The position numbers and the translations under genes were made by a program. This document shows positions 3,482 through 33,630 of a stretch of 36,292 nt of DNA, piece after piece. The stretch lies in UHGV virus genome UHGV-0154029; one strand, given 5' to 3'. The notes under the pieces are model-generated. The model was not told where the DNA came from. It ran no database searches and worked only from the letters and a program-made list of their open reading frames with translations. How positions within the stretch are numbered: the first letter of the stretch is position 1; each line of letters begins with the position of its first letter. The DNA is from a virus.

Positions 3482-5641
3482 TTACTCCTGTGTCATTCCG
3501 CTTAGCGATGCCACAATCCCAGCCCTCGACAAACGCTGGAACTCTTCGTTTCCTAGTGCATCGCGAATTGCTTTTACGGCGGCCTTATTTGCCATAAATC
3601 TGCGTTCCGCCGCCGCTAATGCTTCTTTGCTTCCGCCTGCTCTTACTGCTTTGGTGGCTTCCTGAACAGCTTTCTCTATCGCATATCGACCACTACGTGT
3701 GGTGGCAATTTTAGATACAGCGCCTTTTAACCCAGCGCCAACTAAAGCACCCGCGGCAGCGCCTGCAATGCCCCCTCCAGCGCCACCAACAATGGCACCT
3801 GATGTTGAGTTGGCAATTGCATTTAACACTGTTGATGTGACGTTGGATAAACCAGCATCCAGATCGCGTAGTACATTGGCAGTTCTCCCTGTTCTTTCAA
3901 TATACTGCTGAGGTTTCACTGCCGCTCTTGCAAGAGTGCCATATGCATCAGCAATTCTTCCAAGTTCTGAGGAATATCTGCTAATGGCTTTTACATTTTG
4001 TGGGGTAAGTATCCCTGCGATATGGTTAATTCCTGCTGCATCAGATTTGCCACCACGTACACCATGCGAGATAGCATCCTGCAACATTGATGATATAGCA
4101 GGAACACGCTCTGATTCTGGCAGCGCGCGGATCATAGAATGGAATCCGGCAGGACCATTAAGACCTTTAGCTGACGATGATTGAAGAGATTTTACTCCAT
4201 TCGTAATCAGTGCATCTGTTGCCAAATCACGCCCAAAAACAGACTCTGCACTCTCTTGTGCGGATAGCCTCGCTTTAGACAGATCATTAGCTTTTTGCCA
4301 GTCATCAAAAAATCCGCCGTTTTCCGCCATTGTGCGCATATCATCAGTAATTGCCCGACGTATTTCCCCTGCTCTCCTTGCCGCATTTGCCTCTCCGCTA
4401 CGCTTATATTTTTGCTCCGCATCAGCAAATTTCGCTCTCCATGCTTTCATGCCATCAAATGTTACTCCACCTTGATTGTTTGCCTGAACAAACTGTTTCA
4501 TTTCAGGAGTAAGCGGTATGCCAGCAGATCGCTCTGCCTGAATAACGGCATTACCATTTAGCATTCTTGCTTTTTGATTTGGCATTGTTGACCGCACGTC
4601 ATCCCATGCCGCGCGCTCAGCATCCTTCATCTGATCAAGATGTTGGAGAATCCTTTGTTTTATAGCCGCACTTTTTTCTGATGCCGTTCCAGATGCGGCC
4701 CCAAATTCATCAAGGTTTCGACTTAACTTTGATGATATTTCGTTAAATGCTGCCTGATGGGCATCCTGAACAATCCCTGGTGTTGATGCCAATGCGCCTT
4801 CGGCTTGTGCAATTCCACGACTTCCAGATCGCATTCCTGGTGTTAATGCGTTTATATCAATTCCAGCAGACTCAGCCGCTTTTGCTACATCTTCGGAGAC
4901 ATTAGCGGCCTGACTGGCAATTGACTGACGCCCGGCACCTGACTTTGCCATCCTGGAAACATCATTAGCAGAATTCAGTGCTGCACCACCAAGAGCCTGT
5001 GAAACCCTTGGCGCAATAACGCGCCCGACACCTGAAAGAACGCCTTGAGCACCAATATTGATACCACCGTTAATGGCAGCATTTTGTGCAAAATCACCCT
5101 CCTGATTTGCAGCATCAGCAAGAGAACCGGCAATCATGTTTCCTGCGGAACCGATATCTCCAGCGAGCTTTGCTGTCGCTCCAGCAGCTTTTGCCGCTGT
5201 GCCAATTGGCAGGAGATACCCACCAATTGTTTCACCGGCTTGCGCGTAAGGATCTGTCGGTCGGTCGACTGGACGATAGACATCATCCAATACTTTTGGC
5301 CCACCAAGCCCCTGACTGATTGCATTAATCAGACTTGCGCCACCCTGCAATACGTCAAATGGTATGTTTACCAGACCACGACCAGCCTGTTCTGCAATTT
5401 GCCCTGCACTTTGACCACCTGTGAGCCAATCGCCAGCTTGTTGCATCAATGATGGTTCTTCTTTCTGCTGCTGAGGCGGAGGGTATGCTGCATAAAACTG
5501 ATCTCTTGCTTCAGCCCATTTGTCACCAGCCTTAGGGGCAACAACCTCATCAAAATATTGCGCTTGAGCCTGTGCTTTCTGTTCTTCAGTTAACGCCTGA
5601 TACTGTGGAGAGGCGATAACATCTTTCCATGCTTTAGCCAT
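3482..5641 (-). CDS. Ejection/injection protein, P22 gp16-like (719 aa, enlarged)
   Basis: Position directly after the gp20 homolog in conserved P22 order; Ala/Gly-rich segments. Longer than P22 gp16 as I recall it (about 609 aa). Confidence 0.7.
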
Positions 5642-27477: not shown

Positions 27478-28137
27478 ATGAAAATGAAATGGTATGAACT
27501 GGCTAGATCCAGAATGAAAGAGCTCGGCATAACTCAAGAGAAGTTAGCTGAAGAACTTGGTATGACGCAGGGTGGAATTGGTCACTGGTTGCGCGGATCT
27601 CGTCATCCATCTCTTGACGAGATTGGTGTGGTGTTTAAATACCTTGGTATTGATAACGTCTCATTCAACCACGACGGTACATTTTCACCTGCTGGCGAAT
27701 ACTCATCTGCCCCCGTTAAAAAACAATATGAGTACCCTGTTTTTTCTCATGTTCAGGCCGGGATGTTCTCGCCTGAGCTTAGAACCTTTACCAAAGGTGA
27801 TGCGGAGAGATGGGTCAGCACAACCAAAAAAGCCAGTGATTGTGCGTTTTGGCTTGAAGTTGAAGGTAATTCCATGACCGCACCAACAGGATCCAAGCCA
27901 AGCTTTCCTGACGGAATGTTAATTCTCGTTGACCCTGAGCAGGCTGTTGAGCCAGGAGATTTCTGCATAGCCAGACTTGGCGGTGACGAGTTTACCTTCA
28001 AGAAACTGATCAGGGATAGCGGTCAGGTGTTCCTACAACCACTAAACCCGCAATATCCAATGATCCCATGCAATGATAGCTGTTCCGTAGTAGGGAAAGT
28101 TATCGCCAGCCAGTGGCCTGAAGAGACATTTAGTTAA
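27478..28137 (+). CDS. cI: Immunity repressor: non-lambda HTH N-terminal domain fused to lambda cI-like S24 peptidase C-terminal domain
   Basis: 219 aa; the C-terminal ~135 aa ([134 protein letters not shown]) is near-identical to lambda cI; the N-terminal 70 aa is different. Start may be the second ATG (27484). Confidence 0.9.
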
Positions 28138-28169
28138 CAGCCTCACCACTCTAAAACACACAACAATAA

Positions 28170-28197
28170 CCCGACCTTAGCGTCGGGTTTTCTTTTT
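28170..28197 (+). terminator. Intrinsic terminator after the repressor gene
   Basis: Hairpin CCCGAC-CTTAGC-GTCGGG followed by TTTTCTTTTT. Confidence 0.6.
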
Positions 28198-28262
28198 CCA
28201 AAATATAAATCAATAAAATACAAAGTGTTATAAAAAACTAACCACATTTAGAACATTTTGTA

Positions 28263-28291
28263 TTGACTCAATAAAGTACACATCGTACTAT
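28263..28291 (+). promoter_or_regulatory. PL-like promoter with overlapping operator
   Basis: TTGACT (28263-28268) - 17 bp - TACTAT (28286-28291); inverted repeat AGTACACATCGTACT (28275-28289) overlaps the spacer/-10. Confidence 0.55.
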
Positions 28292-28336
28292 TTAGCCATC
28301 AGCAGGAAGCTGGAAGCCAAACGGAACAGATTGGCA

Positions 28337-28371
28337 GGCTCTTTAACTTCGATGGGGCGCTGACAAAGCGC
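28337..28371 (+). promoter_or_regulatory. nutL: boxA (GGCTCTTTAAC) and boxB hairpin GCGCTGACAAAGCGC
   Basis: boxA-like 28337-28347; boxB 28357-28371 with 5-bp stem and GACAA pentaloop as in P22 nutL; upstream of N. Confidence 0.7.
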
Positions 28372-28490
28372 AAACAGATACCAAACGAGATGGGTTTGGC
28401 GGTGATGTGAATTGCAGCTGCAACGACAGCAACCAGAAGATCAGCACCTGGCGCATCACCACCAAAGCCATTTCACATGAGGAAAATATC

Positions 28491-28799
28491 ATGACGGTAA
28501 TCGTGTACGGGAAATCAACATTTGCAGGAAATGCCAAAACTCGCCGTCATGAGAGGCGCAGAAAGCTGGCTATCGAGCGTGATGCTATATGCAACATCAT
28601 CGATTCGATCTTCGGCACAGACAGTGAGGAACCTGTTCAGGAAGCCCCGAGAAAACGTTTAATCCTTTCTGAAAAAGCAATATCACTCGGCAACATTCGT
28701 AACCAAAATACCGACGAATGCAGTGGAAGTATTTGCCTGCCAAACGTAGCTCTTTACGCGGCAGGCTACCGGAAATCAAAACAACTGACAGCCAGGTAA
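28491..28799 (+). CDS. N: N antiterminator, P22 gene 24-type
   Basis: ORF-track entry 28407 (GTG) trimmed to MTVIVYGKSTFAGNAKTRRHERRRKLAIERDAICNIIDSIFG... with the arginine-rich motif; the C-terminus ...LYAAGYRKSKQLTAR resembles P22 N. Confidence 0.85.
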   Translation: MTVIVYGKSTFAGNAKTRRHERRRKLAIERDAICNIIDSIFGTDSEEPVQEAPRKRLILSEKAISLGNIRNQNTDECSGSICLPNVALYAAGYRKSKQLTAR

Positions 28800-29027
28800 G
28801 TGATGAATCAGACATACATTCCATCATGCTTGAGAAATCTGCCAAAGCAGAAAGCAAAGCCCCGCAAGCAAGCCATAAAGGACGCTAAGGCAGAGGTTAT
28901 TGATCAAGCAATACAATTGCTCAGGGAGGAGCTAAGAAGTGGCAAGCTCGAAGGAATGATGATGCCATATCAGCGCGGATATCTATCGGCGATTAGTAAG
29001 TTGGAAGTATTGAAGAGTGAATTATGA
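28800..29027 (+). CDS. Small basic hypothetical protein (about 74 aa)
   Basis: ORF directly after N; likely start ATG at 28803; Lys/Arg-rich N-terminus and predicted helical C-terminus. Confidence 0.45.
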   Translation: MMNQTYIPSCLRNLPKQKAKPRKQAIKDAKAEVIDQAIQLLREELRSGKLEGMMMPYQRGYLSAISKLEVLKSEL

Positions 29028-29089
29028 ACTATCTGGAATTTCCGGATGGTTCATTGTTTTGGCAGCAAACCACTTATTTGAGGTGATAT

Positions 29090-29539
29090 ATGGAAGAACA
29101 AGCAAACAAGATTCTCGTAGAACTACTGAAAAAAGCCAGTAATGGAATAGACGTGGCTGTTTCATTTAGCCAGGCACAGATTCCTGATGTTGTTCATCAG
29201 TTGCTGCTATGGAATATGGTTGAAAGTCTGATTAAAACATTAATTGCCATTCTAACAATCCCACTGGTTTTCTGGTTTATGAAGAAGCAGTGCCAAAGAG
29301 TTGAGACAGGTAAAATAGGTGGTGAAGGATACTCATGGGAGAGGGGAAATCCCAAATACAGGCCGACAATGGTTTGGGATAGCAAAGGAGATATTAACAT
29401 TCTTATCATGCCATTGGTTGGAGTTTTGACTCTGTGGGGGATTTTTATTATTGGTGTAGTAACCAATATGACTTGGTTAAAAATCTGGCTGACCCCAAAG
29501 CTTTACCTTATCGAATATGCAGCATCATTGGTTAAGTAA
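29090..29539 (+). CDS. Two-TM membrane protein (149 aa); candidate superinfection-exclusion/abortive-infection factor
   Basis: Hydrophobic segments LIKTLIAILTIPLVFWFM and INILIMPLVGVLTLWGIFIIGVV; lies in the N-cIII accessory zone where lambda/P22 carry sieB. Confidence 0.6.
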   Translation: MEEQANKILVELLKKASNGIDVAVSFSQAQIPDVVHQLLLWNMVESLIKTLIAILTIPLVFWFMKKQCQRVETGKIGGEGYSWERGNPKYRPTMVWDSKGDINILIMPLVGVLTLWGIFIIGVVTNMTWLKIWLTPKLYLIEYAASLVK

Positions 29540-29688
29540 TTTCAGGACGCATAGTCGGCCTTTATTTTTGGCATAAACAACAGAATAAACACAGCACTGT
29601 GTATTCATTCCAACGAGTGAATACACGGAGCAATGTCGCTCGTAACTAAACAGGAGCCGACTTGTTCTGATTATTGGAAATCTTCTTT

Positions 29689-29716
29689 GCCCTCCAGTGT
29701 GAGGGCGATTTTTTTC
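29689..29716 (+). terminator. Intrinsic terminator (tL-like, presumably N-suppressed) upstream of the acidic-protein gene
   Basis: Hairpin GCCCTC-CAGTGT-GAGGGC followed by GATTTTTTTC. Confidence 0.55.
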
Positions 29717-29733
29717 TGTGAGGATATGAATAG

Positions 29734-30102
29734 ATGTCAAACATCAAAAAATACATCATTGATTACGACTGGAAAGCATCAATAGAAATTGAAATCGACC
29801 ATGACGTAATGACAGAGGAAAAACTTCACCAGATTAATAATTTCTGGTCAGACTCTGAATACCGACTCAATAAACACGGCTCTGTATTAAATGCTGTATT
29901 AATCATGCTGGCGCAACATGCTCTGCTTATAGCAATTTCAAGCGACTTAAATGCATATGGTGTTGTGTGTGAGTTCGACTGGAATGATGGAAATGGTCAG
30001 GAAGGATGGCCTCCAATGGATGGTAGCGAAGGAATAAGAATTACCGATATCGATACATCAGGAATATTTGATTCAGATGATATGACTATCAAGGCCGCCT
30101 GA
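29734..30102 (+). CDS. Acidic hypothetical protein (122 aa)
   Basis: RBS GAGGA; strongly Asp/Glu-rich (EFDWNDGNGQEGWPPMDGSEGIRITDIDTSGIFDSDDM); no family recognised. Confidence 0.6.
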   Translation: MSNIKKYIIDYDWKASIEIEIDHDVMTEEKLHQINNFWSDSEYRLNKHGSVLNAVLIMLAQHALLIAISSDLNAYGVVCEFDWNDGNGQEGWPPMDGSEGIRITDIDTSGIFDSDDMTIKAA

Positions 30103-30136
30103 GCGCGTTTTTAAAGAATACAACGAAGGAGGATAT

Positions 30137-31105
30137 ATGAGTGAAGTAACAGATTTAGTTGTTATTGAGAAAGCAAATGCAATGACTGTATTTCAGTCTG
30201 CCGACCAGATTGAAGAAATCCTTCAAAAGGTTGAACGTGAAGTTATGTCCTTTGTGCCTGATATCACAACGGCAAAGGGCAGAAAGGAGATCGCTTCTCT
30301 GGCGTATAAAGTTGCGCAGACGAAAACATATCTCGATGGTCTTGGCAAAGACCTTGTTGCTGAACTGAAGGAAATTCCAAAGCTAATTGATGCCAACCGC
30401 AAGACAGTGCGCGATCGCCTTGATGAGCTGAAAGCCAGGGCACGCCAGCCTCTTACTGATTATGAAGAGGAACAGGCGCGGATTAAAGCTGAAGAAGAAG
30501 CTAAGGCAGCAGCTGAAGCTCTCGCAAAGAAAATTGAGTCTGACCATGAAATAGCGATTTTGATGGATCGCGAATTTGACCGCCAAAGAGAAGAGGCAAG
30601 ACTCAAAGCTGAGCAGGAAAGGCGAGAGCATGAAGAACGCTTAAAAAAAGAAGCTGAAGAGAAAGCCAGAGCAGAAGCCGAAGCAAAGGCAAAAGCCGAA
30701 ATTGAAGCAGCAGCAAGGCGAGAAGCAGAAGCTAAGGCCGCAGCGGAACGTGCAGAGCGTGAACGCATTGAAGCCGAGCAACGAGCACAGCGCGAAGCAA
30801 AAGAGGCAGCAGAACGAGCTGAAAGAGAAAAGCAGGCGGCAATTGAAGCAGAACGCCGAAAAGCACAGGAGGAGGCTGAACGAATCCGGCGCGAGGCTGA
30901 AGCAAAAGAGCAAGCCAGAATAGCAGAAGAAAAAAGAATCAAGGACGAAGAAGAGCGTAGAGCAAAGGATAAAGCTCACCGGAAAGAAGTAAATAACAAA
31001 ATACTTGCTGACCTTATCAAGGTTGGCGCATCAGAAGATGTTGCTAAAAATATCATAACAGCCATCGTAAAAGGCGAAGTATTCGCAACAAAAATAACCT
31101 ACTAA
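30137..31105 (+). CDS. ER/K-rich coiled-coil (single-alpha-helix-like) protein with globular N- and C-terminal regions (322 aa)
   Basis: Central ~150 aa is a low-complexity run of E/A/K/R (AEEEAKAAAEALAKK...EAEAKAKAEIEAAARREAEAKAAAERAERERIEAEQRAQREAKEAAERAEREKQ...). Confidence 0.65.
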   Translation: MSEVTDLVVIEKANAMTVFQSADQIEEILQKVEREVMSFVPDITTAKGRKEIASLAYKVAQTKTYLDGLGKDLVAELKEIPKLIDANRKTVRDRLDELKARARQPLTDYEEEQARIKAEEEAKAAAEALAKKIESDHEIAILMDREFDRQREEARLKAEQERREHEERLKKEAEEKARAEAEAKAKAEIEAAARREAEAKAAAERAERERIEAEQRAQREAKEAAERAEREKQAAIEAERRKAQEEAERIRREAEAKEQARIAEEKRIKDEEERRAKDKAHRKEVNNKILADLIKVGASEDVAKNIITAIVKGEVFATKITY

Positions 31106-31129
31106 TAAAACCAACATAAGGAACCACCC

Positions 31130-31261
31130 ATGATTTACGCAATCGCGGGAGGCGCTCGCATGGGTGCCTTCCAATTAAATGAATCTTTACTTGAACGAAT
31201 CACCCGTAAATTACGTGACGGATGGAAAAGAGTTGAGGTCTTATTATGCGCAATGAAATAG
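31130..31261 (+). CDS. cIII: CIII-like protein (43 aa)
   Basis: Not in the ORF track. MIYAIAGGARMGAFQLNESLLERITRKLRDGWKRVEVLLCAMK; core LLERITRKLRDGWKR matches lambda CIII; RBS AAGGA. Confidence 0.7.
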   Translation: MIYAIAGGARMGAFQLNESLLERITRKLRDGWKRVEVLLCAMK

Positions 31262-31398
31262 CCATTAATCACCAGATGCTTCGTGCGGCACAAAACAAAG
31301 CAGTAATAGCCAGATTTATTGGTGATTCAAAAATGTGGCTTGAAGCAAATAAAGCGATGAAATCAGCTATCAACCATCCGTGGTATCGCAGGAAATGA
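31246..31398 (+). CDS. kil: Kil-like small protein (50 aa)
   Basis: Not in the ORF track. MRNEIAINHQMLRAAQNKAVIARFIGDSKMWLEANKAMKSAINHPWYRRK; the FIGD.KM motif and position after cIII suggest lambda Kil. Confidence 0.45.
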   Translation: MRNEIAINHQMLRAAQNKAVIARFIGDSKMWLEANKAMKSAINHPWYRRK

Positions 31399-31553
31399 GT
31401 TTTACAGATAACTGGTCAGACGAAGAATTCATTCGTCAGATGAAAGAATTAATCGGTAACGAAGGAGATATTCATGTCACTTGCAACCACAGTGAAGGAG
31501 AGCAAGTTACAGAGACGCATGTACACGCAGAAAGCTCTCTGGTATCGCCATAA
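31395..31553 (+). CDS. Possible small acidic protein (52 aa)
   Basis: ORF whose ATG overlaps the Kil-like stop (ATGA); no recognisable motif. Confidence 0.25.
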   Translation: MSFTDNWSDEEFIRQMKELIGNEGDIHVTCNHSEGEQVTETHVHAESSLVSP

Positions 31554-31652
31554 TGGCGACCGCGAAGGAATGCGGGTATGCCTTAATTTGTCACGAGTCG
31601 AAGTATTAAATCAGCGTTATTTCCTTGGGCCGTGTCCATTCTGAGGTGAATT

Positions 31653-32360
31653 ATGGATTTGAATAAATTCGATGAGCCATTCAGCCCTGAAGATATCGAA
31701 TGGCGAATACAGCAAAGCGGTAAAACACGCGATGGCAAGGTGTGGGCTATGGTGCTGGCTTATGTCACGAACCGGGCAATCATGAAACGCCTGGACGATG
31801 TTTGCGGCAAAGCAGGATGGCGCAATGAATACCGCGATATTCCCAACAACGGCGGAGTTGAATGCGGCATATCAATCAAGATTGATTCCGAATGGGTAAC
31901 CAAATGGGATGCTGCTGAAAACACGCAGGTAGAAGCCGTCAAAGGTGGTCGTTCCGGTGCAATGAAGCGCGCTGCCGTTCAGTGGGGAATCGGTCGGTAT
32001 CTGTATAACCTTGAGGAAGGTTTTGCACAAACATCTCTCGATAAAAAGCAGGGATGGCACAGGGCAAAACTCAAGGATGGAACAGGATTTTACTGGCTCC
32101 CTCCATCGCTGCCGGGATGGGCAATCCCAGCATCAGATAACAAACCATCACCAGAAAATACCAACCAGAAATCTCCATCGGTTGACTGCGAACAAATCCT
32201 GAAAGACTTCAGCGATTATGCGTCAACAGAAACTGACAAGAAAAAACTCATCGAGCGTTATCAGCGTGACTGGCAATTAATGGCTGGCAACGAGGAGGCG
32301 CAGGCTAAATGCGTTCAGGTAATGAACATCAGAGTTAACGAACTAAAACAGGCGGCATAA
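31653..32360 (+). CDS. Rad52/Sak-family single-strand annealing protein
   Basis: 235 aa; motif AMKRAAVQWGIGRYLYN is typical of Rad52-like SSAPs; located next to SSB (the position of erf in P22). Confidence 0.8.
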   Translation: MDLNKFDEPFSPEDIEWRIQQSGKTRDGKVWAMVLAYVTNRAIMKRLDDVCGKAGWRNEYRDIPNNGGVECGISIKIDSEWVTKWDAAENTQVEAVKGGRSGAMKRAAVQWGIGRYLYNLEEGFAQTSLDKKQGWHRAKLKDGTGFYWLPPSLPGWAIPASDNKPSPENTNQKSPSVDCEQILKDFSDYASTETDKKKLIERYQRDWQLMAGNEEAQAKCVQVMNIRVNELKQAA

Positions 32361-32834
32361 ATGGCAATCAGAGGCGTAAATAAGGTGATCATTATTGGTC
32401 GCCTTGGGCATGATCCAGAAATCAGATATTCACCATCAGGAACGGCATTTGCAAACCTTACAGTTGCTACGTCAGAACAATGGCGTGATAAGCAAACTGG
32501 AGAGCAAAAGGAGCAGACGGAGTGGCACCGTGTGGTAATTAGCGGGAAACTGGCAGAAATTGCTAGCGAATATCTGCGAAAAGGCTCAGAGGTTTATCTT
32601 GAAGGCAAATTGCGGACAAGAAAATGGCAGGATCAAAGTGGACAGGATCGGTTCACTACCGAAGTCATCGTGGGTGTTGGTGGAACCATGCAAATGCTTG
32701 GTGGCAAGCAAGGAGGCAATGAACAGTCTTCACATCAGCGAAATAACGGTCAGCAACAAAGACAGCAATCTCAGCAGCAGGGGAATCACAGCGAACCACC
32801 TATGAACTTCGACGATTCGGATATTCCGTTCTAG
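32361..32834 (+). CDS. ssb: Single-stranded DNA-binding protein
   Basis: 157 aa; OB-fold N-terminus, Gly/Gln-rich linker and acidic C-terminal tail DDSDIPF. Confidence 0.95.
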
Positions 32835-32843
32835 GAGCTGAAT

Positions 32844-33323
32844 ATGAAAATCTGCTCAAGATGCCATCAACAGAAGGAAGAAAGGGACTTTCAAATCAGA
32901 AGAGCATCCAGAGATGGATTAACTGCCGCTTGCCGGGCTTGCCTGGCTGAATACGACAAAGAACGCGCTGGATTGCCACATCGAGTATCAGCAAGGAGAG
33001 AATATCAATCATCGGAACGCGGAAGAGAACGGTGTAACGCAGCCAAAAAGCGGTTCATTCAGAGCAACCCATGGAAAAGAAAAGCCCACATCATTGTGGG
33101 TAATTTTTTGCGCGACGGTAAGCTAATCCGACCACCACAATGTGAGTGCTGCGGATCAGAATGTAAACCACAGGCGCACCACTGCGACTACAGCAAACCA
33201 ACCGATGTGATGTGGCTCTGCAAGTCATGTCATGTCGAGTGGCACAAACATAACAAACCTATCTACCCAGACGAGGAACCAGTAACTCTCCCCTTCCCTC
33301 GTCACGCTATTCACGCAATTTAA
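32844..33323 (+). CDS. HNH endonuclease-like zinc-binding protein
   Basis: 159 aa; N-terminal CxxC...CxxC and C-terminal CECCGSE...AHHCDYSKP...LCKSCHVEWH (HNH-like). Confidence 0.7.
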   Translation: MKICSRCHQQKEERDFQIRRASRDGLTAACRACLAEYDKERAGLPHRVSARREYQSSERGRERCNAAKKRFIQSNPWKRKAHIIVGNFLRDGKLIRPPQCECCGSECKPQAHHCDYSKPTDVMWLCKSCHVEWHKHNKPIYPDEEPVTLPFPRHAIHAI

Positions 33324-33336
33324 TCAGGAGAAAATC

Positions 33337-33630
33337 ATGCCAGCGCCTCTGTATGGTGCGGATGACGCGCGCCGCTGTTCCGGCAATTCCGTATCGGATG
33401 TGCTGGATAAATTCAGAAAAAACTACGATCGGATAATGTCGCTACCACAGGAAACGAAAGAGGAAAAGGAATTTCGCCATTGTATATGGCTTGCAGAGAA
33501 AGAAGAACGCGAGCGAATTTACCAGACATCAATCCGACCATTCCGCAAAGCCACATATACCCACTTCCCTGAAATTGACCCGCGCCTGCGTAATTACCGC
33601 TCACGCTATGGCGCTATCAGTAATGACTGA
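33337..33630 (+). CDS. Hypothetical protein (97 aa)
   Basis: ORF only. Confidence 0.5.

Follow-up and report, generated by a model that had tools for sequence, protein, structure and literature searches.

Genes and features of the early-left region

The window, that is, the whole 36,292-nucleotide stretch of viral DNA analysed here, is a P22-like (Lederbergvirus-type) E. coli prophage, whose closest relatives are HZ41, IME10, CUS-3, APC_JM3.2 and Sf6. Its early-left operon lies on the + strand as the window is drawn. Within this operon, an ORF of 122 codons starts with the ATG at 29734 and ends with the TGA at 30100-30102 of the + strand; the gene, its ribosome-binding site and its neighbours are listed below.

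27478-28137, + strand, gene of a CI-like repressor
28491-28799, + strand, N antiterminator (Pfam N_peptide, E 1.5e-39, residues 29-130 of the ORF; phrog_271)
28800-29027, + strand, phrog_5305 gene
29090-29539, + strand, phrog_3054 gene (149 aa)
29720-29724, + strand, Shine-Dalgarno sequence GAGGA, 9 nt before the ea10 ATG, read from the sequence and the same in lambda
29734-30102, + strand, ea10 coding sequence (122 aa plus stop; DUF2528 / PHROG 646), from the ORF list and the sequence
30137-31105, + strand, gene of a 322-aa coiled-coil "TolA-like" protein, phrog_1376
31130-31261, + strand, cIII, read from the ORF translation
31246-31398, + strand, kil
31653-32360, + strand, erf
32361-32834, + strand, genuine SSB gene (phrog_44, E 1e-64), adjoining erf and five genes 3' of ea10
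32844-33323, + strand, endonuclease with a Lar-like N-terminus (159 aa; phrog_2340)
33337-33630, + strand, abc2 (anti-RecBCD)

The N start was inferred to be an ATG inside the 28407 GTG ORF. The initial annotation had described a 122-aa ORF in the early-left region, within a neighbourhood of the Ral/Abc type. The ORF is real and its coordinates proved exact, and its placement was borne out as well: ea10 lies on the same strand as the genes of the CI-like repressor and N, 3' of both and 5' of cIII, kil, erf and abc2, as a pL-operon accessory gene in the position where lambda keeps ral, gam and kil. With a dN/dS of about 0.06-0.10 over unsaturated pairs, ea10 is a real gene under strong purifying selection.

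Some of the neighbouring genes deserve mention on their own account. The phrog_3054 protein (29090-29539), which occupies the lambda sieB/ral slot, contains two extended hydrophobic segments and could be a membrane protein or one of the superinfection-exclusion type. The product of 30137-31105 is rich in Glu, Ala, Lys and Arg and is named "TolA" or "cell envelope biogenesis" in related phages; a relative of its gene is found near an ea10 homologue in a Pantoea prophage (locus L102). In the product of 32844-33323, the N-terminal 69 residues match the Lar-like restriction-alleviation family phrog_5558 (E 7.5e-7). As a lead to anti-restriction in this operon, the gene is more concrete than ea10. 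Neither PADLOC nor NCBIfam gave a match for Ea10 or its three neighbours.

The ORF corresponds to phage lambda ea10

Judged by its sequence, the ORF at 29734-30102 is certainly the already-known ea10 gene of phage lambda, an identity that the initial annotation missed. A tblastn search of 50,697 phage records revealed a protein 100% identical (122/122 aa) to the lambda "reading frame ea10" (V00638) and equally to those of phage 434 and DE3, with homologues of 97.5-99.2% identity in Stx phages and phage 21. At the nucleotide level, the coding sequence matches ea10 of NC_001416 over 369/369 nt with 0 mismatches. The protein also matches Pfam PF10800 (DUF2528) with 160.6 bits against a cutoff of 22, covering profile positions 1-104 of 104, and phrog_646 with an E value of 3.8e-71 over positions 1-122 of 122.

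Besides the protein and the coding sequence, the window and lambda share a near-identical leader with tL2a, PreS and the Shine-Dalgarno sequence, as well as the same operon slot under pL, 3' of N and 5' of cIII and kil. They differ in the surroundings: the carrier genome in the window is a P22-like prophage and not lambda, ral, orf28 and sieB of lambda are replaced by the phrog_5305 and phrog_3054 genes, and the 322-aa coiled-coil gene sits between ea10 and cIII, where lambda has none. The presence of ea10 in a lambdoid prophage is in itself expected. It is a textbook lambda gene, carried by about 40% of the complete genomes of E. coli.

In many records the ea10 product is labelled "ssb" or "ssDNA-binding protein"; ssb is a legacy synonym of the gene. 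The current RefSeq/PGAP name is "DUF2528 family protein", from which the "ssb" label has been dropped.

A lambda-type module joins ea10 to its leader

Pairwise alignment with lambda delimited a mosaic module around ea10, which contains the following elements.

29557-30107, + strand, lambda-type mosaic module (PreS/tL2a leader plus ea10)
29628-29715, + strand, PreS (LPR1) homologue, near-identical to lambda and adjoining ea10 on its 5' side
29687-29715, + strand, tL2a intrinsic terminator, a GC-rich hairpin at 29687-29708 followed by a run of seven T residues, from a terminator scan

The module is about 99-100% identical to lambda DNA, and both of its flanks are unrelated to lambda. Its leader extends ~175 bp 5' of ea10, and on the 3' side the identity to lambda ends only a few bases from the ea10 stop codon. 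The terminator at 29687-29715 aligns with the ral-ea10 intergenic region of lambda, where PreS (LPR1) has been described as an Hfq-dependent sRNA between ral and ea10 (bioRxiv 10.1101/2024.10.31.621285; PMC12197685), and tL2a as the 3' end of this sRNA (bioRxiv 10.1101/2024.10.31.621285). In the window the 5' end of PreS is approximate, being set from the published length of ~88 nt; for the 89-nt stretch, a folding energy of -28.9 kcal/mol and a z of -3.1 were computed. A scan of 28000-32000 against Rfam, in which PreS has no family, gave no match.

The same boundaries recur in other genomes. Among 80 loci on IMG/VR contigs with an identical Ea10, the 5' homology boundary lies at 29550-29599 in 63 and the 3' boundary at 30100-30129 in 77; as the boundaries coincide in most loci, PreS/tL2a and ea10 move as a single unit. 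Among 5426 complete E. coli genomes, 2249 (41%) carry the module, at up to six sites per genome. The P22-like prophage acquired ea10 and the upstream tL2a/PreS as one sharply bounded recombinational module. After infection or induction, ea10 would be transcribed from pL, and as tL2a lies directly 5' of the gene, its expression is expected only upon N-mediated read-through, by inference from lambda. Both the abundance and the N-dependence of Ea10 are taken from lambda and not from the window prophage.

Acidity and residue conservation across the family

The strong acidity ascribed to this small protein was confirmed. Ea10 has 14 Asp and 8 Glu residues (22 in total, 18%) against 6 Lys and 2 Arg, giving a computed net charge of -14 and a pI of 4.28, the second lowest among the 97 window ORFs that start with ATG and encode 60 aa or more. 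The sole ORF of lower pI, at 3984-4184 on the + strand, lies inside a long gene of the opposite strand and is probably spurious, which would make the pI of Ea10 the lowest of the credible window genes. The acidity had also been placed especially at the C-terminus; residues 81-122 do account for -8 of the total of -14, but a further -4 comes from residues 21-40, so that it extends beyond the C-terminal region.

When 1.84 billion representative proteins were searched with a family profile, 589 clusters (50% identity) were obtained at E < 1e-3. Most of the 150 clusters listed are stand-alone proteins of about 115-135 aa. The longer members checked for fusions have N-terminal extensions without a Pfam match, which are probably start-codon miscalls or sequence of no recognised kind, and no informative domain fusion was found among them. 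The 204 full-length members have a median pI of 4.40 and a median net charge of -13, with a pI < 5 in 97.5%; the acidity is therefore kept family-wide and is not a chance property of the window copy.

Across 205 diverse sequences, 11 of the 22 acidic positions of Ea10 are Asp or Glu in at least 60% of members. Conservation over the same sequences is position-specific and concentrated in motifs with invariant Gly, Trp, Pro and His residues.

D22, 92% conserved
H23, 71% conserved
F37, 94% conserved
R44, 89% conserved
E90 and G91, 95% each
D96, 91% conserved
G97 and G100, 98% each
K5, Y7, E20, N35, W38, W92, P93, S98, I101 and D116, likewise highly conserved

Together, E20, D22, H23, N35, W38, R44 and the segment E90-G-W-P-x-M-D-G-S-x-G-I make up a conserved polar and aromatic patch. 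Mean-field covariation analysis (DCA) of 245 sequences (Meff about 180) was dominated by local couplings and gap artefacts and did not inform the clustering of these residues.

Predicted structure of Ea10

The structure of Ea10 was predicted by AlphaFold2 from a 74-sequence alignment, with a pLDDT of 95.2 and a pTM of 0.87; this model was used in place of a single-sequence prediction, which reached a pLDDT of 42. The model has three β-strands (residues 4-11, 15-22 and 101-107) and four α-helices (residues 28-37, 41-48, 51-70 and 74-79), and the conserved segment 90-100 forms the loop before the last strand. Ea10 is thus predicted to be a soluble, compact single-domain α/β protein, in which a β-hairpin is followed by four helices and then, after a loop rich in Gly, by the third strand.

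Structural similarity search using Foldseek against 350,542 PDB chains gave no match at E <= 0.001, and against BFVD it gave one match, apparently a family member. A sequence-profile search of the PDB with Ea10 returned only DotZ, at a noise-level E of 0.85. No solved DNA mimic is among the matches listed from the PDB sequence-profile and Foldseek searches, and no SSB is among the 60 structural matches listed. The model has a resemblance to SPFH proteins, for which the Foldseek match is not significant; hhalign gave probabilities of 0.1% against E. coli HflC and 0.2% against HflK, and a Pfam scan of Ea10 found neither a Band_7 nor an SSB/OB-fold match.

Family members in other temperate phages

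The genomic context of the family was surveyed with one genome per species, by ORF clustering and Pfam annotation. DUF2528 homologues were found in six Mu-like prophages (loci L107, L109, L112, L114, L116 and L117), whose hosts are Salmonella diarizonae, Citrobacter braakii, Symbiopectobacterium, Pseudoalteromonas, a Calditrichota MAG and a deltaproteobacterial MAG. At these loci the homologue lies in the semi-essential early region, beside or just 3' of the genes of transposase A (rve) and B (AAA_22), which it follows directly in several cases. In Salmonella diarizonae (L112) it precedes a Mu-Gam-like gene (PF07352), GemA and Mor. At one locus the homologue follows a Toprim/DUF5906 primase, and at other loci a phage-186-type CII gene lies near it. 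A DUF3164 gene precedes the homologue in L107 and L114, and another is found near the homologue in L119, with no A/B genes within the stretch examined.

The phage-database matches listed are all lambdoid, Stx, Burkholderia or Stenotrophomonas temperate phages, with no virulent phage among them (50,697 records searched). In a search of plasmids, run as a test for an ArdA-like leading-region association, 20 of 72,556 records match, and most of the plasmid matches listed look like DNA of phages, lambda included, or like chromosomal records deposited under the plasmid heading. The DUF2528 family thus always resides in early operons, as part of the largely non-essential "host-interaction" segments found in temperate phages of several unrelated kinds. 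In three of these architectures, its genes share operons with dedicated nuclease inhibitors, namely lambda Gam, Abc2 (in the window) and Mu Gam.

Possible functions of Ea10

The ea10 gene has been known since the 1970s-80s, and its product is one of the few abundant lambda early proteins without an assigned function. Ea10 is abundantly made from pL and was once mistaken for Kil (PMC3961180); the strong ribosome-binding site of ea10 fits this report of abundant early protein. CRISPRi showed the gene to be dispensable in lambda (PMC10695390), insertions of IS10 and of cassettes in it are tolerated (PMC2327257), a single two-hybrid interaction has been recorded for the protein (PMC3224144), and its role has been called "not fully understood" (bioRxiv 10.1101/2024.10.31.621285). 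Literature searches under several names of Ea10/DUF2528, with the lambda-host interactome and the Casjens & Hendrix review outside their coverage, found no functional study and no report of anti-restriction or nuclease inhibition. A lead from Sergueev et al. 2002 was set aside: the host-replication block reportedly maps to the exo-xis region and not to ea10, and within the literature covered the paper is cited mainly by studies of that region.

The initial annotation had proposed that the protein is a possible DNA-mimic or anti-restriction candidate. Accordingly, the carboxylates of Ea10 would resemble the backbone of DNA and fill the DNA-binding site of a type I/III restriction enzyme, of RecBCD or of some other defence directed at DNA, in the manner of Ocr, ArdA or lambda Gam. 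The net charge of -14, the pI of 4.28, the family-wide acidity and the 11 acidic positions retained as Asp or Glu in at least 60% of members all agree with this reading, as does the position of an early, abundant, non-essential gene beside ral/gam-type genes. The charge per residue of Ea10 (-0.115) lies between those of two accepted mimics, lambda Gam (-0.058) and T7 Ocr (-0.239). T7 Ocr and ArdA are likewise small, acidic, early-expressed and non-essential proteins; however, the charge density of Ea10 is half that of Ocr, neither protein has sequence or fold similarity to it, and its predicted α/β fold contrasts with the all-helical Ocr type. More generally, Ea10 has no fold or sequence likeness to any solved DNA mimic, and its conservation resides in specific motifs with invariant Gly, Trp, Pro and His and not only in diffuse charge. 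The family is moreover confined to temperate phages, with no virulent phage among the matches listed, is virtually absent from plasmids and does not occur in conjugative-plasmid contexts. Lambda Gam, P22 Abc2 and Mu Gam resemble Ea10 in their early operons, and Gam is likewise an acidic DNA mimic, but none of them is homologous to it, and the sharing of operons between Ea10-family genes and these inhibitors argues for a different Ea10 target. Given that DNA mimics share no common fold, this evidence does not refute mimicry, but apart from the charge none of it lends specific support; as one special case of the binding of a host protein, we regard mimicry as improbable.

The position-specific conservation of catalytic-type residues (D22 92%, E90 95%, D96 91%, R44 89% and H23 71%) would suit a small enzyme, or a binder or sponge of a metal or small molecule, for example of a host signalling nucleotide or metabolite, with a pocket formed by E20, D22, H23, R44, E90, D96, S98 and the Gly-rich loop. 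Such a role fits the compact, well-ordered single domain of the model, and it is in keeping with the many sponges and enzymes among the phage counter-defence proteins of similar size described in recent years. Although a serious alternative, it seems unlikely: Ea10 has no fold or sequence match to enzymes or solved sponge proteins in the PDB, and its high abundance suits a stoichiometric over a catalytic role. The SPFH resemblance could be read as a sign that Ea10 modulates FtsH/HflKC and so tunes CII/CIII stability and the lysis-lysogeny decision. With hhalign probabilities of 0.1-0.2% against HflC/HflK, no Pfam Band_7 match and a non-significant Foldseek match, this is very improbable, and Ea10 also differs from HflC/HflK, stomatin and prohibitin in having no membrane anchor or coiled-coil tail; the resemblance is weak and serves as a lead only. 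Scarcely credible is the role implied by the legacy "ssb" label, that of an ssDNA-binding protein. The gene does share its operon with recombination functions, but a pI of 4.28 and a net charge of -14 speak against ssDNA binding, no SSB/OB-fold Pfam match was found, the predicted fold consists of helices and no more than three strands, and the RefSeq/PGAP naming has abandoned the label. A bona fide SSB is already encoded in the same operon at 32361-32834, which points to the label on ea10 as a legacy misnomer. Altogether, Ea10 is very unlikely to be an SSB and falls outside the characterised anti-restriction families.

From its anatomy and context, we tentatively propose that Ea10 most likely binds or inhibits a host protein in a stoichiometric manner. 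This is the best reading of a compact, abundant, acidic, non-essential and early protein with a sharply conserved loop and patch, although the conserved Glu/Asp/His/Ser/Arg cluster would equally fit a metal, small-ligand or catalytic site. Ea10 would thus act stoichiometrically as a non-essential accessory protein, binding a host protein through its acidic surface and invariant loop and then neutralising or redirecting it. The target would most plausibly be a basic nucleic-acid-binding or defence protein, and temperate phages would profit from this during early lytic growth. It is conceivable, though rather doubtful, that Ea10/DUF2528 is the founder of a temperate-phage counter-defence or host-takeover class with a new fold, spread over lambdoid, Mu-like and 186-like phages, which would neutralise a host DNA-binding or immunity protein via its acidic face, itself conserved, and the invariant EGWPxMDGSxG loop, perhaps as a DNA mimic.

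Several handles are available for testing these proposals: a confident model without a solved relative, near-invariant residues, the family-wide acidity, the distribution limited to early operons of temperate phages, Mu-like ones with the gene directly after the transposase genes included, and the evidence against the "ssb" label, which continues to spread in annotations. If Ea10 does inhibit a host defence or nucleoid protein, a gap of ~50 years in the lambda gene map would be closed; if it founds a counter-defence class, a function would be assigned to one of the last lambda orphan genes.

Stray copies in public assemblies

Copies of ea10 identical to that of lambda (loci L083-L096, L100, L105 and L108) also occur in assemblies of Shewanella, Pseudomonas, Neobacillus, Oceanobacillus, Paenibacillus, Kitasatospora, Enterococcus and other genera. 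Low-coverage contigs of ~48.4-48.5 kb hold several of these matches, and 48.5-kb "plasmids" of Stenotrophomonas, Paenibacillus and Salmonella (H69-H71) carry the same gene. These stray copies look like contamination of public assemblies by lambda control DNA.
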